From the NCBI GenBank assembly GCA_964187785.1, contig OZ076409.1, positions 4,652,001-4,716,000 on the forward strand: a stretch of 64,000 nt of DNA. The letters run 5' to 3'. Both the position numbers and the translations under genes were made by a program. The DNA comes from Amphiscolops sp. MND2022 (taxonomy: Eukaryota). How positions within the stretch are numbered: the first letter of the stretch is position 1; each line of letters opens with the position of its first letter. This document shows, in pieces, positions 8,561-37,280 of this stretch. The notes under the pieces are model-generated. The model ran no database searches, was not told the origin of the DNA, and was given only the letters and a program-made list of their open reading frames with translations.

Positions 8561-9527
8561 ATAAGTGTCAAACCTCTACCTCAACCAAGTTTCTGTTTTA
8601 ACCAATAACGCATACCTTTTTGTTGTAAAAAAGGATTCCTCACGAAAAGCCTTTGTGCTTGTAGGAATTCTTTTCAGGGGCTTTTATATATATATATATA
8701 TATATATTTTTACTTTGAAATTATGGAACATGTATAACGCCACCTGATAAATTCAATTATTATTATTATAAATTTTAAAATCTTTATTTTCACTCGTTGG
8801 GTTTGGAATTAGACAAAATTCTCTGACTCAGCGTGCACGGACATGAACAAAAGCTATTTGGTTCAAAAACTTTCTGTCTGCAGTTTTTTCCAGTATGACG
8901 TATTTATTGCTCTCAAACATGACTAGCAAAAAAGCAATTTTTCTCTTAGACAAGCCTCCTTCACAACTGAAGAGACCCGTGTGAAATAAAAATTGGTAAA
9001 AGCCTGAAAAATTGTGTCTCTGGTACTAGGAACCTGATGGCAACATCGTAGACGTAGGGATTAACCAATTCAAACACCGTCTATACAATTTTACTTCAGC
9101 AATTTTTTTTAATTTTTCAATGAATTTTTGTTCTTCAATGAATTTTTTTAGCGGAGTTCTATTTAGTCGGCTCTTTTCGAAGGGAAGATTCGACTATGGA
9201 AGTGGCGTTTTTTAAGTTTGGCTCACTGACAACTTTTTATGAGCAAACTTTTATAAGCTGTAGCTTAGTAACTTCTAACAAGCTTGCAGGTAATCCCTTA
9301 TTTCTGAGATCTCAGAAGCAGGTATATGTGGGTTCGAATCTCGTACTGAACCAAAATACTTTTAATGCTAGCAGAAGTAGAGAGGAAACCATAGGGTATC
9401 CCCTTTTGTTTTTTTTTCAGTTTTTTGCGACTTTGTTCTGACGTTTTTTCAACTGATTTTTAGCAGAAAGAGAGCGTTTTGCGAGCATGGAGTTCTACTT
9501 GGAGTTTTTTGGCACTATGCAAACTTG

Positions 9528-9971
9528 TTTTCAGTCAGCGCTTTTTCTCTTGAGGAATAAAGCCCGACTGTTACAGTGGGTAGTTTTTTTTCAGCTGAAT
9601 CTCACTCTGAATGGTCCACTTTTCTTACAACTCTTACAATCTAACAATTTCTTACAATTCTTAACTAGCTTACGAAGTAGTATTTTAGAAACTCAACGGG
9701 GCCAAAGTGTTTTCGGCTCTGTGAGATTTTTTTTTCGAAAAATGAAATTTTCACCGAAGGGTTCCCTTCAATTTTCTGATATTTTCCAACAGAATGGATG
9801 TTGAAAAATGCTAAAGGGTCCCCCCTTTCAGTTTTTTTCGGCATTGTGAGACTTTTTTCAAATTTTGTTTTCATAAAAGGGTCCCCAATTCACCAATACT
9901 TTGACATTTTGAAGTCCTTTTGCTTTTTTGAGCCTTAGATATGGGCCGACTTGGGCCGCTCCCGGCTTGTT
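9528..9971 (+). mobile_element. HINE/DINE-1-like non-autonomous element, family A copy
   Basis: 5' TTTCAGTCAGCG...CCGACT hairpin; 3' GAGCCTTAGATATGGGCCGACTTGGGCCGCTCCCGGCTTGTT. Confidence 0.7.
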
Positions 9972-15602: not shown

Positions 15603-17474
15603 ATAGTCGGCGCTTTTCTTTAGAGAAATACGGTCATGGCTTTTCGTCAGTGTTTTTTTAAGACCACCTGAACTGACCAAAATAGTTCTACAAAAGTTCT
15701 ACAAATTATTATTGCCCCAAATTGCACCATTTGGCCTAGCGAACTGAACCAAAAGGTTTTTCCTGTTTTCCCGCGTAACATACCATACCGGGCGAGACCA
15801 AAGGGTCCCCCCTTTCAGTTTTTTTTTGGTATTGTGAGACTTTTTTTCCGAAAATTTTTTTTCATAAAAGGGTCCCCAACTCACCAATACTTTGACATAT
15901 TGAAGTCCTTTTGCTATTTTTGAGCCTTAGATATGGCGCCGACTTGGGCCGTTCCCGGCTTGTTTGATATATTGTTTGTTCAACAATTGACTCTAGAAGG
16001 TGTCTGAGTTTCTCAAGATTCATATCAGCAGAACATATAACAAATAGCGCAGTGCTACAGCGTCTCTTCTCCTTTTTAGTCGGCGCATTTTAGTAGAGAA
16101 TGAGCCCGAATTTTACCGTGGGTAGTTTTTAGCCGCGTAAGGTCCTCTTTTTCAGTCGGCGCTTTTCTTAAGAAAAGAGTCAACTATAGTCATGGCTTTT
16201 CGTCAGTGTTTTTTAAGACCACCTGAAGTGACCAAAATAGTTTTACCAAAAGTTCTACAAAATTTTGAGAAGACGCCAAATTGTACCTGTTGGCCCAAGG
16301 AACTGAGCCAAAAAGGTTTCCCGCGTAACATACAATACCGGACGAGGCCAAAGGGTTTCCCCTTTAGATTTTTTCCGGCATTGTGCGACTTTTTTCAAAC
16401 TTTTTTTCCACCAAAGGGTCTCCCTTCAATTTTTTGGAGCTTTGCAACAGAATAGATGATGAAAAATCCCAAAGGGTCCTCCCTTTCAGTTTTTTTGGCA
16501 TTGTGAATTTTTGTTCATAAAAGGTTCCAAATTCACCAAAACTTTGACATTTTGTAGTCTTTTTGCTATTTTTGAGCCTTAGATATGGCGCCCACTTGGG
16601 CCGGTCCCGGCTTGTTGCTCATTTGTTCAACAACGTGAACTACGGACTACAGAGGTTCACAACACTCGAAGCTCATTAGCTCCAAAACGGAAAGAGAAAA
16701 CAAAACAGACGTCCAGAACCTCGAAAACACACTAATGATCCCCTACCTTCATTTTTTTCTACTTTTACAATTTTGAGCCTTAGATACAGCGCCAACTTTG
16801 GCCGTTCCCGGCTTGTTTATTTTTGAAAAAGAAAATCCTAATTTTAAACAATGCATTTTTCTTTCCTCTTCAACAAGGACTACCTGTTGCTACTAGATGC
16901 TCGAAAGTGGAAAAAACGACTTTTAGAACAGCAGGTATTTCCTACGTAGGTTCAGATCCCAAAGTGGCTTTTTTTCTAATTTGGAAAAGCGAATGACATC
17001 GAGTTTTTCATCGACACTGTGGGTTTTTCGGGAATTGTTTTCTACTTTAAAGAAAAATACTTTTTTTGTCGAGGTTTTTGGTAAGAGAAAAAGGTCCGAC
17101 TATTTTGCTAGTTTTTTTTCGTCAGACCACAGACCTCACTCTGCATGTACCACTTTTTGTGCACTGTGCAGTTTTACCAAAAGTACTTAGTATTTGATTT
17201 TGAACGCATCCAAAGCCTCTAAAAAACCATTCCAAAGCAGAAAGATCCCGCTTTTCAATGTTTTTCGGCACTATGAGACCTTTCCCGCCCTTCTTTAGGC
17301 TTTGTGGGACTTCTTTCGAAAATTTTGTCGCCAAAAGGTCCCCCTGAATTTTTTTGATATTTTGCAACAAACTGGATTTTCGATACGTCCAAAGGGTCCC
17401 CCTTTTACAATTTTAAAAACTTTGCGCCTTTTGAGCCTTAGATATAGCGCCAATTTTAGATGCTCCTGTCTTGT
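15603..17474 (+). mobile_element. Cluster of HINE family A copies, one nested
   Basis: Copies at 15603-15964, 16074-16817 (containing inner copy 16148-16616) and ~17062-17474. Each ends in a sub-TIR, a small hairpin and TTGTT. Confidence 0.75.
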
Positions 17475-17831
17475 TTGCTTTTTGACTTAGGACTCACGCT
17501 CAAATAGACACTTTTTGGTTCAGTTTGTTCAATTAAAGCTAGTTTTTTCTCGTGGAACCAAAGAGTTCACCCTGTATGTACCACTTTTGCGCACTGTTCA
17601 CTTTTGTCATATGTACTTAGTACTTTGTTTTTAACGCATCCAAAGCCTATATCTTGAAATACAAAACCATTGCAAAGCAGAGGAGTCCTCCCTTACTCTT
17701 TGTTTGGCACTATGAGACTTTCCTCGCCCCCTTTTTGGCTTTATGAGACTTTTTTCGGGAAATTTTTTCTTCTTTCTTCATTTTTTTGACATTTTGCAAT
17801 AGAATGGATGTTGAAGAAGTCGAAAAGGTAC

Positions 17832-18100
17832 TGTGCTGCTTTTAATGGTTGGTTCTTTCTGATGGTGGTATTATTCACAACTACTAAAAGCGGCTAAGAG
17901 ACAGGCTAGCTAGCTAACTTTATTACAACTAGTTCGAGGTGTTAGAAGTAGAACAAAAAGGAAGTCAACCGAATACTGATTATTAGTTTTCTCTCTCTGA
18001 GGGAGTAGAGACTTACAGTCATTCAATAATAAATAAATGTACATTCTAGAATATTCTATAAACATCTAAATACTTTTGGTTATTAATGTAGGTCAGTACA
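17832..18100 (-). repeat. 3' LTR (269 bp)
   Basis: TG...CA ends; about 5 substitutions and a 2-bp indel versus the 5' LTR; AATAAA on the minus strand at 17919-17924. Confidence 0.97.
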
Positions 18101-18115
18101 TCCATCCCGGTTTTT
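18101..18115 (-). promoter_or_regulatory. Polypurine tract
   Basis: AAAAACCGGGATGGA on the minus strand, abutting the 3' LTR. Confidence 0.75.
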
Positions 18116-19121
18116 AAATAAAATAAAATTTTAAAGTAGCATCATTAATTAAAATGAAGAAAAAAAATTTTGTTTAAATGTTCTTAGCGTTCAGCTAGTT
18201 AACATTTTTCATTTGATGGATGATTGGCATAAGTCTCTGTAAGAGTGGTGTAAGTTCGACTCATTGGTGTACCTCGAATTGTCAAAATTTTGATTGACAC
18301 CTAGTAGGTGCGACTACAGTTCAAAAAGCGTCAAAGTGGTCTTTTTCACTATGCTTTCGTCGGCTTGTTTTTTGAACTGTTAGATGCTCAATTTTATGCC
18401 TCTGTTGAAGTCTTTGAATGAACTTCGCATTGAACAAACGTGAGCAAACATCATACGAGTTAAAGGTCAAAGAGTCATTGAAAAATTTTTGTTGATAGGA
18501 TTTTTTCATCGAGTGTGAAAACTGTCTGAAAAGATATCAGGTTGTGATCAACTTTGGCGGGTTTGTTATTGAACAAATGTTGAAAACTTTGGGAATTTGA
18601 GTCTGTCATTATTCGAATCTGATTCGAACAATGTGCTTGATCTATTTTTTGAGCTTGTTTTGTTGAACTGTTGAAAAGATTTGTTGTTAACATATGTGAA
18701 TTTTGGATAGGATAGCACCGAAAAATAATAATTTTTAATTATTCTTTAAAAATAAAGCAAATAAATATCGGTAAGAGTGTGAATTAAATGATTTTGAGAG
18801 CAATTAAATATGGGTGGGGATGAAATTTGAAATAAATACATTGCGAATGTTTTCGGTATGAGTTTGAATCTTTTTAAATATTATCATGCACAATGTTTTT
18901 TCTTTGAGTTTCCTTTATTATTGATTATCAATCATCTTCTTCGGTTGAGAACTGGATGGCTGAATATTGAAGATTGGAAGATGGATGAAGATGGGTCAGC
19001 TGTTGGGCGGCGGTGAAGTTGTGAAGAACGGGTGCTGAGTTGTGACGAGCAATCGTTGTGGTTGTTTGGATTTGAAGATATGTTGTCATCTGATGAGTGC
19101 TGTTGATGTCATCTGTTGATA

Positions 19122-19715
19122 TCAGAAAGAGACGTAAGTGTACGTTTTGTATGGGTAATTATCATCTAGAAGTGTTTCTGGAGGGTCTTTTTGAAGTTCT
19201 TCATCAGTATCGTCGTTATTGTCTGAAGGCCAATAGGAATTTAGGTTTTGTTTTTGCATTTCAGAATGCATTCTGTTAGATAGATTTCGTGATAAATGTT
19301 TGGGTTTGATTGTAGTATGCTCTGTTTGGGTAGTGGCGTCTCGTTGGGTTGAATATGTATCAGGATGTTTATGAATTTGAAGATATTGATCAAAGTTTAT
19401 TCGTGTGATTTGGAAGATTTGAAACATATTGAGCAATATCATTCTTGTAAGATGAGTATCTGCCTTTTTATCTGTTTTGAGCTGTGCATTTAATGTTGTT
19501 AAAGGCTTTTTCAGAATCAGGGATCGCAATCGAGCTGAAGGAATTGAAAGAAGAGGAGCTATTGGGCAGTCGGTGTCACCAGAATGGAGTGTCGTCATAT
19601 TGAAGAATATGAAGAAATTTGCTGAAAATTGTAGAAGATTTCGTTGGAATTCTTTTTGGATGGACGGCTTGAGAAGAGGAAGAAATGCTGATGAAGCAGT
19701 TGTGACGGTATTCAC
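19122..19715 (-). CDS. Element-borne ORF of unknown function, probably a spliced exon
   Basis: 197 open codons with no ATG at the start; preceded exactly by CTAATCTATTTTAG|G (branch point + acceptor-like). Confidence 0.45.
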   Translation of the reverse strand: MNTVTTASSAFLPLLKPSIQKEFQRNLLQFSANFFIFFNMTTLHSGDTDCPIAPLLSIPSARLRSLILKKPLTTLNAQLKTDKKADTHLTRMILLNMFQIFQITRINFDQYLQIHKHPDTYSTQRDATTQTEHTTIKPKHLSRNLSNRMHSEMQKQNLNSYWPSDNNDDTDEELQKDPPETLLDDNYPYKTYTYVSF

Positions 19716-20124
19716 CTAAAATAGATTAGTTTGTTTACAATAAAGTTCCTTTTAAAATAGAATTTCATAGTTGACATTTTTTTGATGTAATTTGTGATGT
19801 TATATTTTTTTTTAATTTTAGGAATTAAGTTGATGTATTTTGGAAGTCTTTTGAAGGGTATTTAAATATCTTTCATATAAGTACTTATTTGTTGAAATCG
19901 GTCCATTGAAAGGAGGAGCAATTGAGGAATTTTGTTAAAAATTTTTATGTCGTGATTGAAAATTTTTTATATTGTTTTATTTTAAAAGAGTATTTTAATA
20001 TCAAGCATGTAATATAATCATGCATAGCAGGCATATGCGTGTAGACTCAATTCATTTTGACAGGTTGTTAAGAGATTAAGTGATAAGTGTTAACAATTTA
20101 AAGTTATTATCCCATGATTACCAG

Positions 20125-21392
20125 TTAAGATCGTTGCATTTTTTCAATTGTATAGTTGAATTCGTCCAAAGATGTGCGAATACACAAAGCTGATTGGCTA
20201 ATTCTTGTCGTATCAAATACGTCATTTTGTATTATGCTTCGAGCTTGTTCAAGAGTATTTACGATTTCGGCGATTGTTATAAGAATGTCTCGGTTCGGAT
20301 GATGATAAGGTTTTATGATGTTCAAAATTTCTGTAAATTTCTGTAATTCGTCCGTTGGGCGAAAACTTTGTGGTTGAGGAATGTCATTTTTGGTTTTCTT
20401 TGGCGATTCTTGTTTTGTCTTCTTGTGTTCTTTATGATTTCCATTTGTAAGAAGTGAAAGCAGATGAGAAATAACGAAATTTAATTCATTATTTGAATAT
20501 CCCTTTTTGGTCATTGCGTAAAAATAGGATTTTTCACATCTCCCAGAGGTTGAGAGGCTATATGTTGAATTGGAGGAAGAGGATCAGATATATTTTGTGG
20601 TATATCTTCTTGTAGTAGCGAATCGTCGTTCAGAATGAGGTATTCTTGTGGTACAATGAATGTACACAGAAAACTTTGTTTAAGCGGATCATAATTTCTA
20701 AGTTTTCCTTTTGTTTTGGTATGATCTATCAAATATTCTGAGTTGAAAGTGAATGGCGACGTATATTTGGAGTTGAAGAATATATAATTATCGGGCTCTT
20801 TGTATTGAAGAAACTTCTGATAAGTCATGTGATGAGCTTTTTTGATTTAGTTTGGCAAAAAATTTGCATCATTTTCTTCGGTTCGAAGATCATCTGGAGT
20901 AGGTCTGAGGAAGTTGTATTGGAGTGAGAAAATTTTCACTTTATTTTTTAACCACCAATCATATGGGGTGATCAGTTTTGAAGCGATTGAAGTATGATAA
21001 TCATTTTTAAATTCTCTGATGATGATTTTGTGTTTTGTTGGAATCATGTATAACGAGGTTAACTGAGATTGAAAGGTAAATTGTTTTGATGAGAGAATAG
21101 GAACTAATTCACAATCTCTATCTTCATCTTGTTTAACTGGTTTTATGAAAGGAGGGCAAGCGCCAGATTCCATAAAAGGTTTGTCTGCAGTTATATCTGG
21201 ATACTTTCTTTTTTGAGATCTTGCGTTAACATGATCTACTTGTTCAATAGGAATAGTTTCCATGGGATCTTGAGAGTTTGAAGATGAGTTATTATCCTCG
21301 TTAACATTTTGTTGAATAGTTATATTCAAAGGGGATGCAAGCAATTCAGAGGGGTTAGAGTTAACTACATCAATTTCGGGCAAGGATTCCAT
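20125..21392 (-). pseudogene. Element-borne accessory ORF downstream of env (~420 aa if repaired)
   Basis: ORFs 21392-20847 and 20828-20511 are in the same frame, separated by one TAA. ORF 20514-20125 follows via an ATGA overlap. No recognisable domain. Confidence 0.55.
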
Positions 21393-21833
21393 TATTTAGA
21401 CTTGCGTGGTTTTGTTGAGCTAAATTAATGATTTATACGTTTGATTATACTATTTTTAATAATAAGGAAAACTTTTGTTATGTCTTTTCTGTCCATTAAA
21501 TTGTTTGTTAAAACTGAAGTTTAAATTGTACTTACAATATGAGAATAACTGAGTCAATTGTGGGTTGAAAACATCAACAATCACAGTGGCATCTATTCCA
21601 GGAATAGAAACTTCTGTAATTTCGGTCTTTTAGATGGACTGAAGATCCAGTTGAAGTCTTCTGGTTGAGAGTTGAGTTGTGATGGGCAAGTGAATTTTCA
21701 GTTGAGTTGAAAAGGAGAGACTGGTCCAAGTGAGAATTTGAGTTTGAATGAAAGTTAAACTGAGGAAAAATTTGTTGATAATTTTTTGAACTTTTTCTGA
21801 GGTTAATTTGTTTATTTGGTTATTGCTTTTTAG

Positions 21834-24416
21834 CTAAGAGGGATTAAATTTTATAAAGACTTTAGCAGGACTTTCCGGTACAGCTATTACATTTGATAAT
21901 ATTGGGTCATAGTCCTGAGAGTTAATATCGTTGACATTTGTTGGGTGTGTTTTTTGCGGTGATTGAAATGTTGAATTCTTACTGGAATATTTAGGAAGTA
22001 AATAAAGGGAGTCATTATCAGAGTATCTTCGTTTATTGTGTATTTCTTTTTCCGGCAATAGGATATTATCATTTTCACTTGTTGTGATTTTGGGTTTAGT
22101 ATATATCCGTTTTCGTTTTCCTGTATTGTTCAAATCGGTTATCATTTCCGATGTAACTATAATAAAAAATCCATGGGCTATTGAACTCAAAATGGAAATG
22201 TTGCTTTGGAGATTATATTTTATGCTAATTGTTCTGTAGAATTTGAGTAAAAATGTTAAAACTTCTCTAATGAAAAGAAATGTTGAAAAATAAATTCCAC
22301 ATTGTGTTAAAACATAACATGGATATCCAAAGAAAATAATGAATGCTTGACTGAACCAGTCAGGGTTGAAAAGTGGTAAGAGGTTTAACAAGTGGTCATG
22401 TACTCCAATCCTTAAATGATTATAAGGAATATGTCCTGGGTAAGAATGTTTATCATTATGTACTGTGATGAAATCATAGCTCAATGATTTTCCAAGTAAT
22501 TGAAGAGTTGTGTCTGAATGTTTAGCGAATAATACTCTGTTCCAGAATTGATCTAATTCTGTATTGAGTATATACCGGCATCTTGGGCGGTAAATGTATT
22601 AGGAGTGATTGTTGTTTTAATTTGGGTAGGTTTAAACATTTGTGGTGCTTCTCGTTTGAGTGGTTCAGGTGTTAACACATAAAAATCTCCGTCGTTATAA
22701 TCTGGGTCTAATTCGATTATATTTTGTGGGTTATTTCCACATTCAATTGGTGTTGCATAGTTAAAAGATTGTCTTGTTATAGGATCAACATACAATATAG
22801 TTTCTCTGTAGTGTATGGGAATTCTATCAAAGCATTTGTCTGCCTTGTATAGTGGTGATATAAAATGAGGGCAATCATACAGCCATGCTGTAGATCCTTC
22901 AACGTAGAGAAAGTTACTACGATTTCCAGTTAAAAGAAAACCGGCTAATTGAGGATTCTTAACTGACATAGCTAAGATTGTTAACAATTGAGTTCTTTTC
23001 AGTTCACATATTGTATGAAGGATGTGTTTAGTTCTTGTACTGTCATGGATTTAAATACATGGTTTATTGTGAAATCAATTTTTGTATCACTGTGGGCATC
23101 ATAGTCTAAAGTGGCGAAAGTGTTAGATATATTCAACGCAGGGAATATAAACCTTTTATTTGAGTCATCATATTTTATGTTTCCACTAATTGTTTGATCA
23201 ATTATTGAGTGTGGTTTTGGTAGTCCTGTGTTCATATCAAAACCATCTAAGTATGTAACAAAGATGTCTTCATATTGTGTTGAGAATAATGGTTCAGGTT
23301 TTCCACGAAAGGTTTGTGCAATTGGGTATATTTCAAATCGAGAACGGCTTGGATTGCTTACTTTTGATTGTGGTGTTTTCACATTAGGATATCTTGTTCC
23401 TTGTATTCCTTCGGTTTGAAGTTTTTGTGTGATGTTTGAAGTTTCAATGAAGGTATCAGTTTCTATCCAATGTCTATCTTTGATTCGTGTCATTCTACCA
23501 ATGAACTCTTGAAGTTGAAATATGAGGCCAAATTTTTCATCAAACCATGTTAATGTATATGGAGTTTTTGTCGTGGGTTTACAAAATGCGTCTGAATGAT
23601 AGCATGGTAAAATGTGTCCGTCATGTATTAATTGATTGTTTTTATCATCATAATCTATTGCGGTGTTAACAATTCTAAGTTTCCAACTTTGTCGGGTAAT
23701 TAAATGTTCTCTGTCGGCTCGACATCGGGAGTATGTATTTTGTGTAACATTAACAATCCAGTCGGGATAATTTTCATCGAATACGAAGGTTCCAATATGC
23801 CATGTGTTTAATTTATTTACTCTAAATGGTGTTTGAATTTGTTTAATTGTGTTTTGATAGTTACTATTGTTGAACAATGAGAAAGAGCTTTGTATATTGT
23901 AATTGTTTAGTTCTTCGCTATCAGTCGCGTTTAAATATCTTATCACGTTTTTGCATTCAATAGGGTCTATTTTTTTGGAAGTTCTAATGTGTTTTGTCCC
24001 CATTGTAAACGATCATATCGTCTACTAGATGTGAATGTTTGTGAACACCAGACCTTTTCAGTCTTTTTATATGCTTCGCATTTAAAGGCTTTTATTGTTT
24101 TGGCTTTTGCTCTAACATAAACTGTTGCTTGGGTTTTTGTGTGTTGTATATCTGAGGGTGCTTGTTTACATGGTTCAACATTTAATAAACTGAATTGTCT
24201 TCAGTTGTTTTTTTTTGCACAATCATAATGGGATACCATTAAGTTGAAAATGTTGGGGTCTTGGTCTGAAATATGATTTTCGGAATTGGTTGCATCAACT
24301 TTAGGAACAGTTGAAAGGTGAACTAAAGAGTGAACTATGTCTATGTGTATAATATATATGTATTTAACAACATGTATTATCTATACTAGGTATAGGTTAA
24401 AGGTTGTTTGATTCAT
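21834..24416 (-). pseudogene. env: Envelope glycoprotein, class III fusion-protein-like (chuvirus G / herpes gB type), disrupted
   Basis: Manual reading from ATG 24416 gives HYDCAKKNN*RQFSLLNVEPC...KAFKCEAY...WC, then DYDAHSDTKIDFTINH...LHTICELKRTQLLTILAMSVKNPQLAGFLLTG...EGSTAWLYDC...CFDRIPIHY...YVDPITR...ATPIEC. A C-terminal hydrophobic segment (FIIFFGYPCYVLTQCGIYFSTFLFI) and cytoplasmic tail follow. Two stops and ~3 frameshifts. Confidence 0.8.
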
Positions 24417-24430
24417 GGTTAAAATATTGG

Positions 24431-25896
24431 TTAAAATATTGTTCTATAATTAGGTCCGGAAGAGGGATTAAAGAAGTTTATATGTCCTGTTCTAATCTCA
24501 GGTAATTCTGCGTCACAAAGGTAAGAAATGGATGTGACTATGAATGGTGATGGGGTTGTTTTGTGTGCTACTCTTGTTGAAAGAGAGAATGGATGAGGTC
24601 CTAACGAGTTGAATGTGACTTCTACTTCAAATTTTAATGTGGGTTGTTGTTCTTGTAGTCTTCGTAAGTCTCTTTGTTTTCTTTGGGTTGAGAGTGAGCT
24701 ATTGTTTATAAATCTTGCAGGTAATACTGTGTATCTGGGATCTTCGTTGAGCGTACGAACAATTTTTGAATTAACACGGATGGGATATTCGTGAGGGTTT
24801 GGTGTTGGAGGTCTTGAGAAATCTTCTAAAAATTATTCAGGTAATTGTAAAGAAGAGTTTGATGCTATTGAACTAGGTGAATAAACTCGTGAGAAATTAG
24901 CTGCGCTATCTGATATAGTTATTGGGTCTTCAGAAAGAAGACAAGCTGTTTCAAATCCTGATGTGATTTGAAATGGTAGTGATAAAGAAGATGGTATAGT
25001 GGGTTGAGATGAGGAAAGAGAAGAAGGGTCTTATCTGGGTTGGGCGTGCTGTCTAAGTAGTCTTGAGTTTGTACTTGAACTAGTTAAAGATTGTAATTCC
25101 TGAGAATTTCTTTGTTGTTGAGATCGAAGGTTATAATTATGTCTTGGTACTCTAGTACTAGCAGTTGAGTCAGAATCTTTATCTTTATGATATAAACCTG
25201 TCAAAGAAGAGGTAGTGGTTGAATTTACACGTTCTAATTCAAGTTTGGGATATATTTGAGAAAATGTGAATGAACTTAGTTCAGATGGTGAAGGAATTGG
25301 GTGTTGTTGTGATTTCTTCACTGGTGCCTTCAATGAAGGTTCTGGTAAGAATGTTATTGGAGTATGACTTGATGATGGTAAGTTAATGTCTTGTGGTAAT
25401 GTAGGCAAAGGAGTTTTTCTTTTTGTTTTCGTTGCGGTTGGTACTTTATGTGGACAAGAATTTATGTATTGTAGAACTGAGCTGGGATCAGGGATATGAA
25501 AGGAATGAGTGGGAGTAATTGGTGGAAGAGGAGGTTTATTTAAAATATTTGAAGTATCTGGTGTATTTGGTGTTGTAAGTGTTTCATCATTAGAGTCAGA
25601 AACTGGTGAACGTGTTTCTGCAAATGTCAGATTTTGTGAAATAGGTTGTGATTGAGTTGATATTACTAGTGTTTGAGTTTGGGTTATAGGTGTATTGGTG
25701 GGTGTTATTGGTACTCTATCAGGAGTATATGGAGCGGATGGACTGGGGTTTGAGGATGAGGTATCCAGTATGTCTGTATCTGAGTTTAAATATGCCGGAT
25801 ATTCAGGTAATCTTCGGAGTGAATGTGTTGAACTAAAAGATGAATTATTTGTGGCTGATGATGGTGAGTGAATATGTCTATCAATTTTGAAATCTT
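24431..25896 (-). pseudogene. Extra ORF between pol and env: Ser/Thr/Pro-rich with a C-terminal ordered-looking region
   Basis: One frame runs ~490 codons with two internal stops (25031 and ~24836), includes the track ORF 25031-25408, and ends 14 nt before the env ATG. No ATG seen. Confidence 0.6.
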
Positions 25897-26076
25897 ATGT
25901 GTTATGGTAGTTTGTTTCAAATTGTAAGTTAGGTATTTTTATATCAATTAGGGTTTCTTTCTTTTATTATCACTTGTGAAATATTTTTTCATTCAATTTC
26001 ACATTAAGCTTCAAACTTTCTTTCTTTCTTTCAAATTTTCTTTCTGTCTTTCAGCAGGATTTTTGAGAAAGTGAAA

Positions 26077-29000
26077 TTATATCCTTTTCACCAAGGAAAA
26101 GTCGATAGTCTTATCTTGGTTGTGGGCGGAAATTGTATCTATAATAGGAGTGTCTTCGGGGGTTAATAAAATTATCATAGTCATGAATGTCTGATTGGTT
26201 ATCTGAGTTGGTATTTTGAGAATTTTGTTCTTTTTGTTGGTTCGGAAAGGAAGAATATTGGCTAAAGGATTCCGGTTGGAAGTCGATTGTGGATGGTATA
26301 TCCGTTTCTTTATTAAATGTTGTGGAAGAAAATTGATCTTCGTCACTGAATTGGTTTTCATCGGAGTTAATTATTTGATTGTTTATATTCGAATAATTAT
26401 CATTGAATAAATGAGGATTATACTGTTGTAGGGAAGGAAAAATAATTGGTTCTTTTGTATAGTAAGGAATTAAATGATTTCTGTGTATGTGAGATGTGTA
26501 ACCATCTTGATTAACAATTTCATATGTTATATAGGAAATTTTGTTAATATTTTTGAATGGTCCAATTCTGATAGGTTTTAATTTGTCGGAAAAATGAACA
26601 TGGAGAAAATTTCTTTTTAGTACAATTGTACCAATATCCAAGGGTCTCGGATTGTGGTATGTTTTGTTAAAATTAGCGTAAGAAATTAATTTTTCTTCTT
26701 GTGTTTTCATATACTGTATGGTATATTTGTATCATAGCAGTTTCAGTGGCTAAGATCCATTGTGGGATCGGTTTAGATAAAATTTTATGGAAGAAGGGGT
26801 TTAGATTTGATTTGTCATAGTGTGTATGAAGTGGTAATTCTTGACAATATTGGGAAGTACAATTTCTATATGTATCTCTTTGGAGATTGAGTTCAAAATT
26901 GATTGGAATTCTGGGTATAGTATGAAATACTATTTCATATGGAGATAAGTTCATTTCAGAAAGTGGTTGTGAATTATGTGCATAAGCATACATATGAACT
27001 TGAGTGGACCAGTTTTCTGGAGTGTTATGTAAGAAAAGTCTGAGATGAGTTCCAAGATTTCTGTTTTGATTTTCAACTAAACCATTAGTCCATGGTGCAT
27101 AAGGAGTTCTTGGTGAATGTCTAATTCCCATTGTTGTACAAAGGTTTGCGAATTCGGAATTAATGTTTTCTGTTCCACGGTCGGTAACTAGGTATACAGG
27201 AGGTCCAATTTTTGTTATCCAATGATGTAGTAAGGAGTTAACAGCGTTTTGAGCATTATTTTGTTTTATAGGTACTGTTACTACAAAGTGACTAAAAGCG
27301 TCTACTATAACATGAATGAATGAGTTTTGATTAGATGGTGGGTTTATAGGTCCTTTTGTATCCATTGATATTCGGTAATTAAAATATGAAGCATTTTCTG
27401 AGAATGTTTGTATGGATGCAGTTTGTATTTTTTGGTTAATATGTTTATTTTGTTGACATTCAATACAATCATGGATAAATATTAACATCCATTTATTCAA
27501 ATATGGTAAGAAGTAAAATTGATTAAAAGCTTTGATGGATAATTTTATTCCAGAGTGTCCGTGAGCATGAAGTTTGTTAAAAGCTGCGTGGAAGAGTTTA
27601 AATGGTAAACATATTTTGTCTCTTTGATTCGGATTTGAATCATGAATATTAGGATAATCTATGTGGATAATTTTTGTATCATGGTTAATATACAATTGGT
27701 TGAAAATTTTGTAATATACTAATAAGAAAGAATTAGCTGCGATTGTTGGGTCTATTAGTAAGGGTCTTTCATTATTAAGTATCCATTGGTAAACTTCTTG
27801 TAAAACAGTGTCTTGTTCTTGTTGAGTTTTAATTGTTTCAATTGTTATTTGTGTATCTTCTGGTAGGAAGAAATTATTAAAATATCTTTTGTATTTGAAA
27901 AAAGATGGATCAAAAAATGGAACTTGTTGATTACAATAATCGAATTTGGTAGGATCTTGTATAGCAAGTGTGTGTTCTTTTAACTTGTCTGAGTTTTGAT
28001 GTTGGATATTATTTGATGAAGTTAGTTCATCGTCATCACTGAGAATATCAGTATCATTAAGAATTGTCGACTGTTGTAAGAGAGATTTTGTTTGGTTTTT
28101 TGTATATTTTTTATATTTTGATTCAAATGGAACAATAGATTGAAAAGAGAAGGAATCTAAAGGTTTTATGTGGATATCTTCTCCTGTGTTTTTTATACGG
28201 ATAGAGAATTGGTCGTCTCCGTAGTCAGCAAGGATAGGATGACAATCATTGTTTTGATTATATTTGATTTCTTCATGTTTTACTAAATAGTGTACTGGTT
28301 TGAGTTGATTATCTTTCATGATAGAGAAATCTATTTGAGGTGGTAATTGTTTGTGTCGTAATTGATGTACTTGTAATTGTTCTTTTGTAAAAGTTCGTGA
28401 AAGCATATCTGCTACAGTTAAGTTTTTTCCAGGGGTATGAATGATTTTCAGTTTGGAGAATTTGGTTAATTGCATTTGTGCTCTATAGAATCTAGGACTA
28501 AGATTTACTTTCTTTGCGAAACAATGTAGTAGAGGTTTGTGATCTGTAAAGATGTTTATGGGATGAGGAGATCCAATGATCAAACATTCATATATTTGTA
28601 ATGCGTAAACTATTGCAAGAAGTTCTCTGTCTAAAGCTGAAAGTTTTTGTTCTTGTGTGTTAAGAATTCTGGAGTTATAAGAGATTACTTTCATTTTATT
28701 TTCTTCGTACATTTGGAATAAGACTGCGCCTAAACCAACTAACGAAGCGTCTACTGTTATGAAAAATGGATGCGTTGTATTGGGTATTGTTAATTCAGTG
28801 TCTGCTGTCATTGCATTTTTTACATTTTGGAATATTTTTTCTAATTCAGGTGTCCATTGGAATTTAACATCATCATGTAGTAATGTATACAATGGTTTAA
28901 GGTTTATATGAAGTTTTTCAATGAATCTTGAATAAAAGTTAACACTGCCAAGAAATTGCATAACATCTTTCTTTTCTTTTGGTCATGGGATTCTTTTAAT

Positions 29001-32000
29001 AGCTTCAATTTTGGATGGAATTGGCTTAACTGTGTTGTTACCAATTTCATGTCCAAGGAATTTTACTTGAGTAACATGTAGAACGATTTTTCAGGTGCAA
29101 GTTTGAGATTTTCTCGAGATGCTATTGTTTGTAACTCTTTTATAAGTTCAAACATTTCTTGTTTTTCATTTGCGAGGAGTAAAATATCATCTATATAAAC
29201 TAACGCAGAACGTCTATCTAAAGAAAGTTGACATTTGTTTTGTGAAAAAGTTTGGAAGTCCCTTTAATCCGTAAAATCCACGGATAAAGGCGTATAGTTT
29301 GTCACCGGATGAAAATCCTGTAAGTTTGATTTTTTCTTCGTCTAATGGTGTATGGGCATAGGCATACATTAAACCAATAATTGATTTATATTTTTTATTG
29401 GCTCTAACTAATTGAGGAGCTAAAGGTTCAATGGGCCAAGATTCAAGCTCTTGGTTAGTGTTTGAGTTTAAATGTCTTGCGTTTAAGACAACTTTTGTTG
29501 CGTCTCTTTTTGGGATAATAACTAAAAGGTTTAAAAATGTTGTTCCAATTGTGTGTTTTTCATCTGAGGTGGAACCAATTTGTTTTATTATATTGTATTT
29601 TTCGAGTTCTAGAAAAAGTTTATTTAGTCTATCTCTGTAGTGAATTGGTACTTTAGAAGGTCTTTGTGTATGAAGTTTACAGTTATCCTTTATTCTAATT
29701 CGAAAGGGAGTAGAAATTTTTCCTACGTCGTTCTTATGTTTGGCGTAACAATTTTGATTATCAATCAAAATATTGCAGAGGTTTACGTTTTCTGTATCTG
29801 TTAATTCTGAGTATTCAAAGTTAAACTTTTTTATGAATTGTTGGTTTTCTGTAGAAAATGGTAATGGAGGAAAATCTTTTCGAATTTTATCGGAGGGTCG
29901 AAGATTTCCAGTAACAGAAGGTATAGGAAGTAGAAGTGTTTTGTCGTTGATTTCTATTTTGTTAATTTCTAGTAAGGATTGTGGTGTTACCCTAGTACAT
30001 AAGTTCATATCTGCATATGGATTTTGTTTAATTGGAGTTGTGGTATCAGGGTGATACGCATGTATTACAGAGTGAATAAGTGAATTTACATCATTAACTC
30101 TATAGTGAGGAGGAGTTGTTTGAGTAATAGGGATCTCTATGTATCCAATGATTCCTAGTGGTAATGTGGCTGGGTAAGATGTAAAATTTTGAATTATAGT
30201 CGCACAAGAGTCTTTGCTTTTTTCATTGACTATCATATCCAAGAAATGAAAAATATCTTTAAATTTTTGTAAGAAGTTTGTATATTGGTTTGTTGGATAA
30301 AATTTTGTATTATCTTCAAGTTCAAAATGTAGATTTGAATAGTTTTTAATTGGGAAATGTATGGTTTTTCCTGACCTTGGTTTAAAGTGAATTGGTTCTT
30401 TACATTTAATAGTATAAATGTAAGAAATATATGGGTAATCTTTTTCGGTATATGTGGAAAATGTTGTTTTTGTTGAAAGCTTTGGATGTTGTTCTATGTA
30501 AGTCATAATATTTTGTTGAAAATCGATATTTTGGATGTGTTTTTTGAAAAAGGGTGTCCCAAGAATGTTGTATTTGATATTGGCTACGGCGAAATCGATA
30601 TTAAAGGATCGTGTTTGATGGTTTACTTCAGTAAAACAGGTTATCGAAATATAGTGTATTATTGGTACTTCAGTTTGGTTTGCAACTGTAAGAATTTTGG
30701 CTCTTTTGTTTTCAAGATTGGTTGGAACTTTGATGTTTAATTGTTTGGAAATCACATGAAATGTTGGTAAATTCAAAACAGATATGGATGCTTCAGTATC
30801 TAAGAGGAATAAGATTTCTAATTTTGAAGGTAATAAGTTATCATTTGTTTCAGAAGCGTGAACATATTGTGGATAAAACCAACTATAAGGAGTGATTGTA
30901 TTAGCTATTTCAGTTAATTGACAGGTGTGGATTTCAAATTTTGTACTATCATTGTCTTTTGTAGATTTAACGTCTACTTGATTTATTTTGTTTTGTTGTC
31001 GGTTTCGTAAGGGTGTTCTCGATCGTGATCTAAAATCTCTAGGTCTTGATGGAGATCTATATGGATAATTATATCGTTTAAAGGAGTTTGCTTGTGATTG
31101 AGAACGAGATCTGTATCTTGAGCGAGAGTTATATCTGTAATTTGAGTTATTTCTGTATGGAGATCTATATGGAGATCTAGATGGAGTTCTTCTTTGATAA
31201 TAATTATCAAATCGAGATCTATGTGGACTTCGAGATCCATTGTAATATCTTTGTCGAGAATTTGATCTATAGTTGTTTTGCGAAGATTCTCTACTATTGC
31301 TACGGTATCTATCATTATTTCTGTGTCTATCGTTTTGGTAATTTTGATTATATTTGTTACGATCGTCATCTGAGGAGTAAGGGTTTGTATTGTCATTTCG
31401 AGTTTCTTGTGAGTTATTAGGTTTCCTGCGAAAACATTGTACAAAGGATTGTTGAGGAGTTCGTGATCTGTGGTTATTGTATTTTTGGTTTTCATCATAA
31501 CGTTGTTTTTGATAACAGTTCGAAATACTATGATTATTTTTGTGACAATAGGAACAATATTTTTTATATGCTGGTTTGCTTTTGTTATTTGGGTCTCCAG
31601 ATTGAGTAACCTTTATATGATCTTCATGTTCAAATTCTTTTTTGTTAGTATCATCTTCAAGCGATACTTTGTTTATTTCTAGAGATAAGTCGTTAGTTCT
31701 AATTTTTTCGTTAGCAATGTCTTCAGAATCGACATGTCTAACAAGTGTGTGAAATGGTATTGAAGGTTCAAGTAATGTCGATACATGTTTAACTTGTCGT
31801 TTATGGGCGAAATCTTTTAATTTTTTGGGTAATCCTTTTGTAAAGATTTCATTATTTTTGAGGTTTATGGTAGCTGCAATTTCATCACACCATCCCTTTT
31901 CAACTAATTGTTGTACTCTAAGGGCGAAGTGGCGTACTGTTTCATTATCTTTTTTCATGAGTGACATAGCTTCTACGTGGGCGTAGTAAGCTTTTTTTTG

Positions 32001-34090
32001 AGATGAAAATTGTTTTTTGAATAATTGTACGAAGGAGTTCCAATGTTGTTTATATGATAAATGAAGGTTAGTATACCAATCGAGAGCTGTTCCTGTTAAA
32101 GAACATTGTATGTAAGCCATGCGTCTGTTATGCCAAGATCTTTATTTTATAGGATTATTCTGAGGTTCTTCACCTATGGCGAAGGTTAATCTAGCTTTGA
32201 CTTGTTGTAGATATTCTTCTGGAGTATAAGAATGGTCTAAACCATCAAAAGGTTTCATAGGTTCTGGTATTGAAGCGGACATGTTCATAAAGGTATCTTG
32301 TGGCATTGGTAAGTACTGGAGTGGAGGAGCTAATTGTTGTGTGATTTGAGGAGGTATATGTTGAGTTTTATTTTGTGGTAATGGATTTGGATTTGGATTA
32401 GGATTTGGATTGGGATTTGGATGCATTTGATATGAAGGATCAGTTGGTATCAGTGTAAGTGGAGGGTTTTGAAGTCTTCTTTGAGAATTATGTGTGGTAT
32501 GGGAATAAGAAGTTGAAGGATACGAAGTTCCTTGATTTTGAGAATATATATTATTCTATGAAGTACTGGTTTGTGATAATTGTATGAAAGGGTTTTGTGT
32601 TGTTGAATTCGTATTAATTTGAGAGTGATTTTGGTTGATATTTGTATTAGTATTTGTATTTGATGGAGTATAAAAGTTATAATTAAATGGATTGTAATAT
32701 GGATTGGAAGTTTGGGGATTATCATTACAATTGTTGTTTAAAGAAATCGATCTATCTGAGCGGAAAGCAGAAGGAATTAATGGAGGATCATATCTAGGTC
32801 GAGTAATGTATCTTGTAGAATCAGAATAGTTCTTGTTGGAGATGCAACATTAACAGAAGTATTCTGAGCATGAGATGTGGTTAGAATATCATCATGTAAT
32901 GTGTCATCGGTTTCGTCGTGTGTTGTTTCATCTGTGTATGGAAGGTTGAAAGTTATATTACTGTTTGGAGATGTATCTAAATGAGATTGAGGGCTTTGTG
33001 TATTTTGTCTCTGATTTACAACTCTAGTTGGAACTCTAAAGGATTGAGAGTGTGTTGATGTTGATGTTCCTGCTTGTGATGCATTTCGTGTTGAAATTGT
33101 AGGTTCTTGAGTAGTAAACTCAGTATCATTATAGTTTTCATTTTGATTTTGTTGTTGGAGTGTATTTTCATTATTGGTAGTATCATCTTCAGTATAGTTA
33201 TTAGTGTTAAATTTTAAGTTTTGTTGAACTTGAGAATTTTGCTCATAGTGATAAGGTCTATTGTCTGCAAATATATCATTTTCTGTAATTAATAGAGGAT
33301 CAAAACGTATGTAATCTAAAGTTTGGTTTGTAATTAATTGTGGTTTATGGAAATAAGGATGTTCATTTTGTTCACTGATGATGAATGGTTAACATTCGTC
33401 AACTGTAAAATGATTTGGAAATGCTGTAAAAGCAGGTTGATCTTGTTGTGACCATAATAGTTGATAATTGAATCTGAAGTATTTTCTGAGGAATAGAGAT
33501 ATTATTTTGATCTGAGGAATTGTTTGGTCATTTAATGTTAAGTCTTTGAAATAATGATAGAGGAAATTTTGTATTCTTAATATATCAGTTTGTAACCAAT
33601 GATGAGGATTGTCTTCAGGATTAACTAATCTTTCAATAATTTCTACGTCGAAATTATTTTAATATCGTTCAAGTTCGTCGAGTGCATTTGGACTAAATTT
33701 TGGAATTTCATGTGCTAGGTTGTGGTCTTTAACATTGTTTAAAAAAGCATGAAAAACTTGTTTAATAGAAACTTGGAGGTTTATTGGGTTTATTGTTTTT
33801 CTGTATATATGAGATGAATTAGGTCTTTGTTGAAGAAAGGAAGTTTGAAAAGCTGGGTATTCTGCAGTGATAGTTAGAACTTTGTATCTAATATAGAAGA
33901 GGTATGTGTCCAAATGTTCTCTGATAAGAGGTATTGTTTCAATTGTATGAGGTTCATTTTCAAATGGGAGTGGTTGTGTATAATGGGAAATAATGTTTTG
34001 TAGGAAGGGGTTTAGTTCTAATTTTACAACTTTTGCATTTTCAATGACGGGAGTTTGAAAAAGTAGAAAGGTTGTTATTGAGGAGTTCAT
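26077..34090 (-). pseudogene. gag-pol: Gag-Pol polyprotein (long N-terminal extension, capsid, CCHC, RS-rich tract, PR, RT, RNase H, integrase)
   Basis: Capsid PFDG...SLTGTALDWY; knuckle CSYCHKNNHSISNC; protease FLLDTEAS (catalytic-motif G lost) and ILGTPFF; RT FYGLKGLP and LVYIDDILL (~29190); RNase H VDAS...DRELLAI...TDHKPL...ADMLSR; integrase HAHGH...CIEC, MDTKGP, TDRGT, NGLVENQN, and GPF motif. Broken by several stops and frameshifts. Confidence 0.95.
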
Positions 34091-35462
34091 TTTTAAAGTT
34101 TATCTTTTCTCACTGTAAGTATTTTTTAAAGAGAATACTAACTATAAATAAGACACAAAACGTGTATGTTGTAATGAGCACTACTGTGGTAACTTTTTCC
34201 CACATGTTATAATATGAAGGTTGAAACGTTGAAAATAATTTTTGATAGAGATCCTTTTAAGTTGGAGCTCTTGGGTAATGTCTTTGTTGATTTATGATAA
34301 AGAAAAAATTTTGTTGATATCGTTCAATTAATCTTTCAAAATCGTCTGATGTAGGGTTTTGAAGTGAGATAATTGGCGGAATGTAAAAAGTGAAAGGATA
34401 AATTGTTTGATTGTATATGTTAGGGTTCATATAATTAGTATTGTAACAAGAATTTGAAGTTATTTGGGATGTTAATAGTTTTGGATAGAGAAGAAAGAAG
34501 CGGATGCAAAAGAATCTGTATTCAACCTCAAAGGATTGCTAACAGAAACTAAGTGTGATTTTAAGTCTGGATCACTTTAAAGTGTCTAACATAAGGTTAC
34601 TGACACGTCCAGAAACGCTAAGGTTATTTTAATTTTAAGTGGGTTGTGTGTTTTAGGACTAAGGGGGTGGAGCTCTGAACAATCAACGTCCACTATCCAA
34701 AGTCTGATCAATTCTGATCAAGATCAAAGTTTGATCTTTGTTTCTTTTACTTTTACTTTTACTTCCTGAGAATTTTTAAGATTCGAACGTAGTTCGGTGT
34801 CCTCTCGATTCTCCTTAAAGACGTTTACACTTAAGTAAAGTTGTTAGTCAGTCTTAGAATCAGAGTGAGCTGGTGGAGCTGTCTGATTGTCTACGTCTTA
34901 CGGGAGGGGATGGTAATTGTGGGTGCCTGAAAGTAGAAAACTAACTTTACAGTGTCTGTTTTATTTACATGCCTTATTTTAGGTTTTAGGGCAAAAAAGT
35001 TGTGAGAATTGTATGTGGTATTTTGTTAAAATAATTGTTTTGTAAGATTATATTAGAATTATTGTTGTTAAAAGTATTAGATATAAGGTTAAGTGTTGAT
35101 TGTGTTGTTATTTTTCTTGTGTTGTTTAAGTTTTGAATTTATTAGTATTGTTTAAGTTTTGTGAAATTATGTGTATTGTTTGTCGACAATTGGAAAAGAA
35201 ATGGAATAGTGCGTGGTTGTTTTTTGTAGATAATCTTGGTTGCCTTTTTTTTATTCAGAGTCTATTTCTGAAAACTATTTTGTAGGAATTTTTTGTAGAA
35301 AATGGATCCGAAACGTAAAGGTAGAAAATCCAGGTTTTCTGCCAACACGAAGTTGATCTTGAGACGTATGTGCTTATAGGTGAGCGGAGCTGGACATGCA
35401 CTCAGTCAACTATTACACCAGGAGTCCACCTGACGTTCAAGATAGCAGGATTGAAGAAAGTT

Positions 35463-35790
35463 GGTGTCAAAGGTGTTAGAAAACCTTGATAAACCAGAAA
35501 AATGTTGCTGTGTCAAAGGTGTTAGAAAACCTTGATAAACCAGACAAACATCAACGAACTGTTTCAACAAGCTTCCGGATTAGCTGTGATAAATCAGTAT
35601 AGAGAACAGAACTGTGTCACTTTTGGATAAATCAGTCTGGAAAGAGAAGAGAAACAGAACTGTGTCACAATGGATAAATCAGTCTGAAATGAAACCGTTT
35701 CAACGTGTTAGAAAACGTGATAAACCGGTATGGCAAGAAGAGCAGAAAGAAGAACCGTATCAACGTGTTAGAAAACGTGATAAACCGGTA
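35463..35790 (-). repeat. Array of seven related hairpin/GATAAA modules in the 5' leader
   Basis: Units at ~35463, 35508, 35559, 35612, 35660, 35695 and 35755 share C(T/C)GT(G/T/A)TCA...GATAAA(C/T)C(A/G)G; the first unit is slightly divergent. Confidence 0.75.
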
Positions 35791-36007
35791 GTGAAGAAAA
35801 TTTGTTATATTTGAATTGATTGTTGTAGTGGAGAAATTGTATTTCTAACGATGATGTATTTTTTGATGAAATTCAGAAAGTCAAAAACTAAATTTTCAAG
35901 AAATTCTAGAAAGATTTCACTGCAATTCCAGAGAATTTCAAAGATGGAGAGTGGTATTTGTTTTATTGTTGAGAGAAGAGAAATCATCCAGGAGAAAAAG
36001 GCAAGAA

Positions 36008-36025
36008 ATTTTACAAGTCGCACCA
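36008..36025 (-). promoter_or_regulatory. Primer-binding site
   Basis: TGGTGCGACTTGT begins 3 nt after the 5' LTR on the minus strand. The cognate tRNA was not identified. Confidence 0.75.
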
Positions 36026-36028
36026 AAT

Positions 36029-36299
36029 TGTGCTGCTTTTAATGGTTGGTTCTTTCTGATGGTGGTATTATTCACAACTACTAAAAGCGGCTAAGAGACA
36101 GGCTAGCTAGCTAACTTTATTACAACTAGTTCGAGGTGTTAGAAGTTGAACAAAAAGGAAGTCAACCGAATTCTGATTATTAGTTTTCTCTCTCTGAGGG
36201 AGTAGAGACTTACAGTCATTCAATAATAAAGAAAAATGTACATTCTAGAACATTCTATAAACATCTAAATACTATTGGTTATTAATGTAGGTCAGTACA
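36029..36299 (-). repeat. 5' LTR (271 bp)
   Basis: Direct repeat of 17832-18100, followed by TSD GTAC. Confidence 0.97.
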
Positions 36300-36303
36300 G
36301 TAC

Positions 36304-36895
36304 CCCTTTTACACATTTCGGCATTTTGAGACTTTTCAAAGTGATTATTTTCGCCTGAAATTTTTTCTCAATGTTCATCCAAAAATATCCATTACAAAGC
36401 GTTATATCTAATTTTTGACGTTATATCCGAACTGTACTGCGTTTTAAAGAAAAGGCGGAGGTTCGAAAGCAGGAGTTTTCCATGAAAACGTCCTATGCCT
36501 ATTTCAAAAGCTGCGCTTTTTGAGCCTCAGATATAGCGCCGAGTTTGGACGTTCCTGCCTTGTTTCTTTTTAAACGTTACATACAAACAGAGAGCATAAG
36601 GAATGGCCTCCCTTTTTTGAAAAGTTTTCAATGTCTCCAAATGGTCAACCGTTCGATTGTTTCGATATTATGGAACCAATTGGGTGTTTGAAAACCCCTT
36701 TTACATTTTTCGACACTATGAAACTGTTTCAAAACTCTCCTTTTTCGTTTTTTTTCGAAAGTTTTCTAATGTCTCCAAAAGGTCCTCCTTCATTTTTTTG
36801 GTATTTTGCAACAAACTGGGTTTTCAAAAAGAAACCTCTCATTTACTATTCTGAGTCTTAGATATAGCGCCGAATTTGGCCGTTCCCGGCTTGTT
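36304..36895 (+). mobile_element. HINE family A 3' portions; the first is the remainder of the copy split by the giant LTR element
   Basis: AAAAGGTAC|CCCTTTTACACATTTCGGCA reconstitutes the family core motif across the insertion. 3' ends at 36564 and 36895. Confidence 0.7.
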
Positions 36896-37280
36896 ATTCC
36901 TTGTTTAAAACAGCTGTTGTAAAGGACAGAAAGTTCAGGCTTTGCGGATTTGCTCGCCGTCAACAGTTTGCCTGAATGAGCATGGAAATCAGCTGTGTAG
37001 CGAAATTGCTGCAAAACTGATGTTTTGTTTGAACGTCTTGAATACAAACTGTTTAATTCGATTGTAGTGATGAACATTCAAAGATGGGAATTGAAATTAA
37101 TTTTTATTATAATTAAAATTTCACTTGAATTAAAAAGGCTCCAAAAAATTCCAAATGGGTTCCGCCTTTCAGAGTTTTCGGCATTGTGAAATCGATTAAA
37201 ATGAATTTTTTGTCTGCAATTAGCTTTTCTCAATGTATACCTAAAAATAAATTGTTTTCTATACTATCCAGAATATATAT

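Follow-up and report, generated by a model that had tools for sequence, protein, structure and literature searches.

Env-Carrying LTR Retroelements and the Amphiscolops Locus

According to Chary and Hayashi (eLife 2026, PMC13524379; preprint 10.1101/2023.10.26.564294), 1512 env-carrying Ty3/gypsy elements occur across metazoans and about half of them have an env of the herpes simplex virus glycoprotein B (HSV/gB) type; an ancient association is argued for, and the chuvirus-like glycoprotein of mosquito BEL/Pao elements is reported to adjoin a gypsy POL as well, in 114 elements belonging to Coleoptera, Hymenoptera, Polyneoptera and Hexanauplia. Chuvirus-derived env had been described in the mosquito Pao elements named Anakin (Dezordi et al. 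2020, PMC7642597), and a 2023 study (PMC10084718) found such glycoproteins beside Gypsy fragments with no clear capture. The locus described here lies in a window of 64,000 nucleotides from Amphiscolops sp. MND2022 (assembly GCA_964187785.1, contig OZ076409.1, positions 4,652,001 to 4,716,000); positions below are those of the window. The region of interest is an env gene on the minus strand, and it is best explained, with a probability of about 0.88, as a decayed copy of the env of an 18.5-kb Ty3/gypsy-type endogenous retrovirus (an 'errantivirus' in the broad sense), the env being a class III fusogen of the chuvirus-G/gB type. Of this reading, the family membership, the fold, the Ty3/gypsy pol, the fixed placement of env, purifying selection and the recent insertion of copies with an intact env are supported directly.

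The element resembles the published gB-type env Ty3/gypsy errantiviruses (PMC13524379) in being bounded by long terminal repeats (LTRs), in its gag-pol-env order, in a cysteine-rich class III env with leader and anchor, and in its many near-identical copies; it differs in its length of 18.5 kb, in three further conserved open reading frames (ORFs) and in a long gag extension, and neither extra ORFs nor such an extension are described for env-carrying elements in the available parts of that article. When six env motifs (and generic ones) were searched for among 230 representative ENV sequences of the same survey there were no matches, which is weak evidence, these sequences being gapped and covering domains I-II only. 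Anakin (PMC7642597) is likewise an LTR retroelement with a chuvirus-like glycoprotein downstream of pol; its pol is however of the Pao type, whereas the present element has a Ty3/gypsy-type pol. Drosophila gypsy, ZAM and Idefix share the Ty3/gypsy gag-pol-env organization and a 4-bp target duplication, but their env is F-type (PMC13524379) and not class III. An earlier interpretation of this DNA, made from its letters without database searches (the sequence-only reading), had named BEL/Pao elements as the known carriers of gB- or chuvirus-type env; this background is out of date, as Ty3/gypsy cases have been published (PMC13524379), and the occurrence of a class III env in a Ty3/gypsy element is correct but already in print.

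The Envelope Gene and Its Sequence Family

In three-frame translation the env span comprises 861 codons on the minus strand, from an ATG at 24416 to a stop at 21836-21834. The copy is not open; it is read through three frame changes (near 23971, 23023 and 22565) and two in-frame stops (24383-24381 and 24203-24201), and so consists of four frame segments (24416..~23971, ..~23023, ..~22565 and ..21834). A repaired frame of ~860 codons and a series of motifs had been proposed in the sequence-only reading, and both are found in the DNA on the minus strand and at the expected place: YDC..QFSLLNVEPC is encoded at 24227-24168, with one in-frame stop within the motif, ICELKRTQLLTILAMSVKNPQLAGFLL at 23011-22931, and in the same frame after it EGSTAWLYDC...CFDRIPIHY...VDPITR...ATPIEC; a hydrophobic C-terminal segment (~22346-22245) is followed by a tail that runs to the stop.

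The open piece at 23050..22553 matches the Pfam family PF24664 (Monjiviricetes_fusion) with E=2.6e-14 and 52.6 bits, the curated gathering threshold of the family being 27 bits, and the N-terminal piece of the window env gives a weak match to the N-terminal part of the same profile (E=0.023); the signal of the window env is far beyond chance. Further analysis made use of an intact paralogue, P0001, which is the naturally intact env ORF of another genomic copy (L010), 856 amino acids (aa) from its Met and 92% identical in DNA to the window env. P0001 matches PF24664 with E=6.4e-25 and 87.6 bits over two stretches, the best at profile positions 301-509, and the family is matched by all 51 of the aligned env homologues. 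A search of 1.84 billion representatives returned 2071 env relatives at E<=1e-3, the full-length ones 21-35% identical; a sequence comparison of the intact env with solved structures gave no match at E<=10, and a scan of IMG/VR with the env alignment gave nine pattern matches of which none was confirmed. By sequence, env is placed in the family of Monjiviricetes fusion glycoproteins, which includes the G proteins of chuviruses, xinmoviruses and rhabdo-like viruses. The Jingchuvirales glycoproteins, like those of other Monjiviricetes, are encoded by negative-strand RNA viruses, whereas this env stands in an integrated, reverse-transcribing element beside a reverse transcriptase (RT) and an integrase (IN).

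The intact env is predicted to be a type I membrane glycoprotein of ~856 aa with a hydrophobic leader, a cysteine-rich ectodomain of ~650 aa, one anchor and a disordered tail of ~120 aa. Features of this topology in the model of P0001 are an N-terminal helix at residues 8-29 and helices at 678-733; residues 704-722 are the sole 19-residue window with a Kyte-Doolittle mean of at least 1.5. The ectodomain contains 14 cysteines, most of them kept in nearly all of the 51 homologues, and five N-glycosylation sequons.

Predicted Fold of the Envelope Protein

An AlphaFold2 model of P0001 was made with the 51-sequence alignment and has a mean predicted local distance difference test score (pLDDT) of 68.9, most of the ectodomain being above 70. 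The model features a central helix of 45 residues (437-481; pLDDT mostly 58-89), which would be expected to take part in a trimer, as well as helices spanning the anchor, and its tail is disordered. Modelling with AlphaFold and comparison with Foldseek had been put forward in the sequence-only reading as a check of the env class; carried out on the intact paralogue, they rank chuvirus-type G proteins best (E ~1e-28) and gB next (E ~1e-12). In BFVD the best Foldseek matches are glycoproteins with E-values from 2.9e-28 to 4e-25, namely those of Tacheng Tick Virus 4, Soybean thrips chu-like virus 4, dermapteran chu-related virus 142 and a xinmovirus (2.9e-28 to 1e-25), and further those of Drosophila unispina virus 1 and a qin-related virus; identity to these structural matches is 12-17%, and the first herpes gB stands at rank 17 (E=2.7e-14). 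In the PDB, herpesvirus gB occupies all of the rows listed (ranks 1-49, redundant chains omitted), the best with E=9.7e-13, a probability of 1.0 and ~700 aligned columns. VIA-align of the P0001 model gives Z 9.1 with gB, Z 9.0 with gB domain IV alone (157 residues, root-mean-square deviation (rmsd) 3.5 A), Z 7.4 with Mokola G and Z 6.7 with rabies G. The predicted fold therefore places env among the class III fusogens represented by herpesvirus gB and rhabdovirus G; the fold is common to gB and this env at an identity of ~10% in structural alignments.

It may be considered whether the gene encodes an env of another class (a baculovirus-F or paramyxovirus-F protein, a phlebovirus Gc) or a host membrane protein. 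The sequence-only reading had called env chuvirus-G/gB-like and denied it the baculovirus-F type, and both statements hold: PF24664 is the sole Pfam family found for P0001 at E<=1, no F-type or other env family appearing at that level, every top structural match is class III, and neither F-type nor class II proteins are among the rows listed in the PDB, BFVD and VIA-align comparisons. No point in support of another env class was found, and such an identity has next to no probability.

Polymerase Type

The ORFs of pol contain the Pfam domains Retrotrans_gag, RVT_1, RT_RNaseH_2, RT_RNaseH, Integrase_H2C2 and rve, with a weak match to SH3_Tf2-1. The best solved relatives of the RNase H-integrase (RH-IN) ORF are Ty3 Gag-Pol (7q5b, E=8.9e-34) and Ty3 RT (4ol8, E=2.3e-14), which stand ahead of retroviral integrases. 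Ty3/gypsy-type domains are present in each of the 100 long homologues listed, RT_RNaseH_2 (PF17919) in 97 of them and Peptidase_A17 in none by precomputed domains; their source names, where given, are mostly 'K02A2.6-like' or 'hypothetical protein'. Pol homologues with a named source are 31-38% identical and belong to arthropods, to a cnidarian and to a fish, those from arthropods and the cnidarian being 31-37% identical. The LTRs with TG..CA ends, the short target duplication and the order gag-protease (PR)-RT-RH-IN are those by which Ty3/gypsy elements (Metaviridae) are recognized. A Ty3/gypsy type of pol is well supported by these sequence comparisons, and the sequence-only reading had recognized the Gypsy order and motifs on the same side.

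It could alternatively be proposed that the element belongs to BEL/Pao and is similar to Anakin, as capture of a chuvirus-like env was first described in Pao elements (PMC7642597), the order PR-RT-RH-IN is common to BEL/Pao and Gypsy, and no solved BEL/Pao structure is available to compete with Ty3 in the structure comparison. This is extremely unlikely, since no BEL/Pao-specific Pfam family, Peptidase_A17 included, matches any pol ORF at E<=0.1, the two RNase H families, Integrase_H2C2 and Retrotrans_gag are present along with the weak SH3_Tf2-1 match, and the long homologues listed have the Ty3/gypsy domain set.

Copies, Selection and Age of the Family

A first look at the source genome (1.07 Gb) with the env piece gave 6956 candidates. 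The other 149 scored matches are all 94-96% identical to the env piece, and a stop-to-stop env frame of at least 861 aa is present in 61 of the 150 scored copies. As read from the tables, 17 genomic places are common to the listings for env and the downstream extra ORF and 12 to those for env and the upstream extra ORF; strand and spacing at these shared places are the same as in the window. In a second copy (L021) the order is IN, a 489-aa ORF, env, a 432-aa ORF and a 203-aa ORF. As the LTRs and a target duplication frame the element, and as the same spacing recurs in many copies, env is considered part of the element.

Env is intact in 7 of 19 other loci. Among these seven intact ORFs (21 pairs) the median ratio of nonsynonymous to synonymous divergence (dN/dS) is 0.087, with a mean dN of 0.021 and a mean dS of 0.22; two env subfamilies, with frames of 863 and 870 aa, differ by a dS of ~0.3. 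The low dN/dS across diverged copies indicates that env was under strong purifying selection while these lineages diverged. It has to be weighed against this that a chuvirus-derived endogenous viral element (EVE) might have ended up in a single retroelement copy by accident and been carried along there without a role, as the Jingchuvirales glycoprotein EVEs that lie beside Gypsy fragments come with no clear evidence of capture (PMC10084718). Such an event is very unlikely here, because env keeps its position and spacing in many copies, purifying selection is strong between subfamilies at dS ~0.3, and intact frames persist in the 61 scored copies mentioned above.

The two intact-env copies examined for age (L022/L023 on contig C1 and L024/L025 on contig C4) have pairs of 237-bp LTRs with no mismatches in either pair, which indicates very recent insertion; the lengths of these elements are 18,308 and 18,320 bp. 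The window env DNA is 91.7-94.8% identical to that of 20 compared loci, and its LTR is 86% alike to the LTRs of the two identical-LTR copies over 154 bp; by sequence, the window copy is a member of a different, older branch of the family. An LTR similarity of only 86% between branches indicates that several subfamilies of different age coexist. The family is very abundant and was recently active.

Weight of the Evidence and Proposed Function

Several points weigh against the interpretation of the locus as a decayed class III env in a Ty3/gypsy retrovirus. Global superposition of the model on gB is poor (TM-score 0.21-0.30, rmsd 16-20 A), and confidence in the model is middling (predicted TM-score, pTM, 0.43); a low global TM-score is expected when a monomer model is laid on the extended subunit of a post-fusion trimer, yet it is a weakness, and the case for the fold is made by Foldseek E-values, matches at the level of single domains and the profile match, without a tight overlay of the whole chain. 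The fold was modelled on the paralogue P0001 and not on the broken gene of the window; the Gypsy call comes from domain sets and closest solved relatives, not from a phylogeny, and dN/dS was computed on the seven intact ORFs only. The frameshifts in the window could in principle be assembly errors; real decay of the copy is favoured because of the two in-frame stops, the 5-8% divergence of its DNA from other copies, and its protease active-site motif, which in the 30800-30830 region reads DTE as compared with DTG in P0241, a gag-pol from a database relative with 90% identity. The window copy is dead, since damage affects its env, its RT and its protease motif, and it could not serve as a working element. 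A trimer prediction with three chains of P0001 residues 425-655 scored 0.01 against a mark of 0.32; the fragment's own fold was uncertain and the alignment was unused, and the result gives no verdict.

It is also conceivable that env is kept by selection but is no longer a fusogen, having instead a receptor-blocking, immune-modulating or particle-release role. No basic R-x-K/R-R cleavage motif is present in P0001, and the nearly invariant W289 is a candidate only for a residue of the putative fusion loops; antiviral roles have been proposed for solo chuvirus-like glycoproteins (Dezordi et al., PMC7642597). A loss of fusogenic function is nevertheless improbable, as the architecture is retained in full, from the leader through 14 conserved cysteines and the central helix to the anchor, dN/dS is ~0.09 over the whole ORF, and the gene is found within thousands of LTR-bounded copies and not at a single host locus. 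Many class III fusogens moreover need no cleavage.

As a class III fusogen, env would be expected to act in a manner known from other class III proteins and from Drosophila errantiviruses, on which the following mechanism is modelled. The intact env would be made from a subgenomic, probably spliced, RNA, would enter the secretory pathway through its leader and may trimerise around the central helix; it would then be incorporated into budding particles or displayed at the cell surface. Upon contact with a target membrane the protein would insert internal fusion loops, refold around the central helix and fuse the membranes; this may allow the element's capsids to move from one cell to another, for instance from soma to germ line as in the case of Drosophila gypsy and ZAM.

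Accessory ORFs and Gag Extension

The three extra ORFs lie in copy L021 at 2845-4314, 7357-8655 and 9042-9653. Among scored copies the commonest open-frame length is 489 aa for the upstream ORF (136 copies) and 431 aa for the downstream ORF (150 copies). In a single-pair comparison of the window copy with L021, dN/dS is 0.11-0.37 for the extra frames, a level similar to that of env (0.11-0.24) and of RH-IN (0.12-0.15). A Pfam search of the three ORFs gave nothing credible; for the 432-aa ORF the ESM Atlas returned no usable match, a library of 5.8 billion proteins contained only members of the family (69-97% identical, without Pfam domains), and AlphaFold with 13 sequences gave a mean pLDDT of 30.5 and no usable fold. 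Ahead of the Retrotrans_gag core, P0241 has ~625 aa (residues 1-626) that form a continuous N-terminal extension of gag-pol; the counterpart in the window is interrupted by stop codons and a change of frame.

Extra ORFs are known in LTR elements in general. It is tentatively suggested, as a possibility that is at present more doubtful than the identity of env, that the family is a replicating and possibly infectious 'complex' Ty3/gypsy retrovirus, in which a chuvirus-type env is joined by three lineage-specific genes (489, 431 and ~200 aa) and the ~625-aa gag extension, these being under purifying selection and having no detectable relatives outside the family.

Organization of the Element and Surrounding Sequence

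From 5' to 3' the element is composed of a pre-gag region, gag-PR with the start of RT, the middle of RT, RH-IN, an extra ORF, env and two further ORFs; coordinates are collected in Table 1. The 9-mer of the presumptive primer-binding site has no match in the primer-binding-site table of PMC13524379 supplement 1. The element appears to be inserted in a repeat-rich stretch: a ~91-bp repeat (60-70% alike) is seen on either side of the insertion, at 16533-17482 and 36481-36902, together with short ORFs, on both strands, that abound in PKGPPF-like motifs.

Table 1. Features of the env-carrying retroelement in the 64,000-nucleotide window
Feature	Position	Strand	Basis and remarks
Whole LTR retroelement, 18,468 bp	17832..36299	-	4-bp target-site duplication GTAC at 17828-17831 and 36300-36303
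5' LTR, 271 bp, TG..CA ends	36029..36299	-	5 mismatches and one 2-bp indel relative to the other LTR
TGG... motif resembling a primer-binding site, 3 nt inside the 5' LTR	36017..36025	-	position
Region upstream of the gag core, ~2.4 kb, cut by stops and a frame change	32142..34538	-	comparison with relative P0241
ORF, 975 aa: gag (Retrotrans_gag, CCHC knuckle), protease, N-terminal part of RT	29214..32141	-	Pfam
Middle of RT (YIDD motif), reached only via two frame changes, closed by a stop	28986..29263	-	RVT_1 E=1.9e-7 on 29263..29066
RNase H and integrase ORF, 769 aa	26673..28982	-	RT_RNaseH, RT_RNaseH_2, Integrase_H2C2, rve
Extra ORF remnants (287 + 133 aa) between pol and env	24431..25894	-	commonest open frame elsewhere 489 aa; no Pfam family
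env, gene of a predicted class III chuvirus-G/gB-like fusion glycoprotein	21834..24416	-	broken copy; translation, Pfam profile, fold searches
End of the predicted long central helix (domain III-like) and next short helix	22931..23011	-	translation; helix = residues 437-481 in the model of the intact paralogue
Predicted env transmembrane anchor	22245..22346	-	translation; hydropathy and model helices of the intact paralogue
Second extra ORF, three pieces downstream of env	20125..21395	-	commonest open frame elsewhere 431 aa; no Pfam family
Third extra ORF, 197 aa (203 aa in the copy on C4)	19122..19715	-	no Pfam family
Purine-rich tract immediately upstream of the 3' LTR, putative polypurine tract	18101..18115	-	function from position
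3' LTR, 269 bp, TG..CA ends	17832..18100	-	LTR comparison

Elsewhere in the window, a non-LTR retrotransposon of the long interspersed nuclear element (LINE) type lies on the plus strand at 5742-8202, with an Exo_endo_phos endonuclease and RVT_1 split over two frames; an ORF upstream of it (4295-5212) has no Pfam match. A fragment of a different LTR-type element is found at 284-1129 on the minus strand, where a CCHC knuckle and, after it, a stretch resembling a protease can be seen by eye; no Pfam family matches it at E<=0.01. Likely host genes or exons, all on the minus strand, are located at 39079-40230, 43944-44417 and 44808-45329; they include an uninterrupted 383-aa ORF similar to rhodopsin-type receptors (7tm_1 E=2.6e-5, below the cut-off), a piece resembling a C-type lectin and another with a PAN domain, which are consistent with an animal genome.

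Significance

The call of the env class from motifs alone proved right, and to the published picture of class III env in Ty3/gypsy elements the locus adds one very abundant, recently active lineage. The value of the finding is in its details and not in the concept: thousands of copies, at least two subfamilies at dS ~0.3 with a constrained env, copies with identical LTRs, and the extra ORFs. The env itself is of modest interest; closer attention is deserved by the accessory ORFs and by how large and how recent the family is, and the conserved extra ORFs could be studied as accessory genes of a retroelement. The lineage also bears on whether negative-strand RNA viruses and retroelements exchanged a class III fusogen, and in which direction. 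Should the family be a complex retrovirus as tentatively suggested, it would give an errantivirus of the invertebrate type a set of accessory genes, and the element may account for a considerable part of an animal genome of 1.07 Gb.

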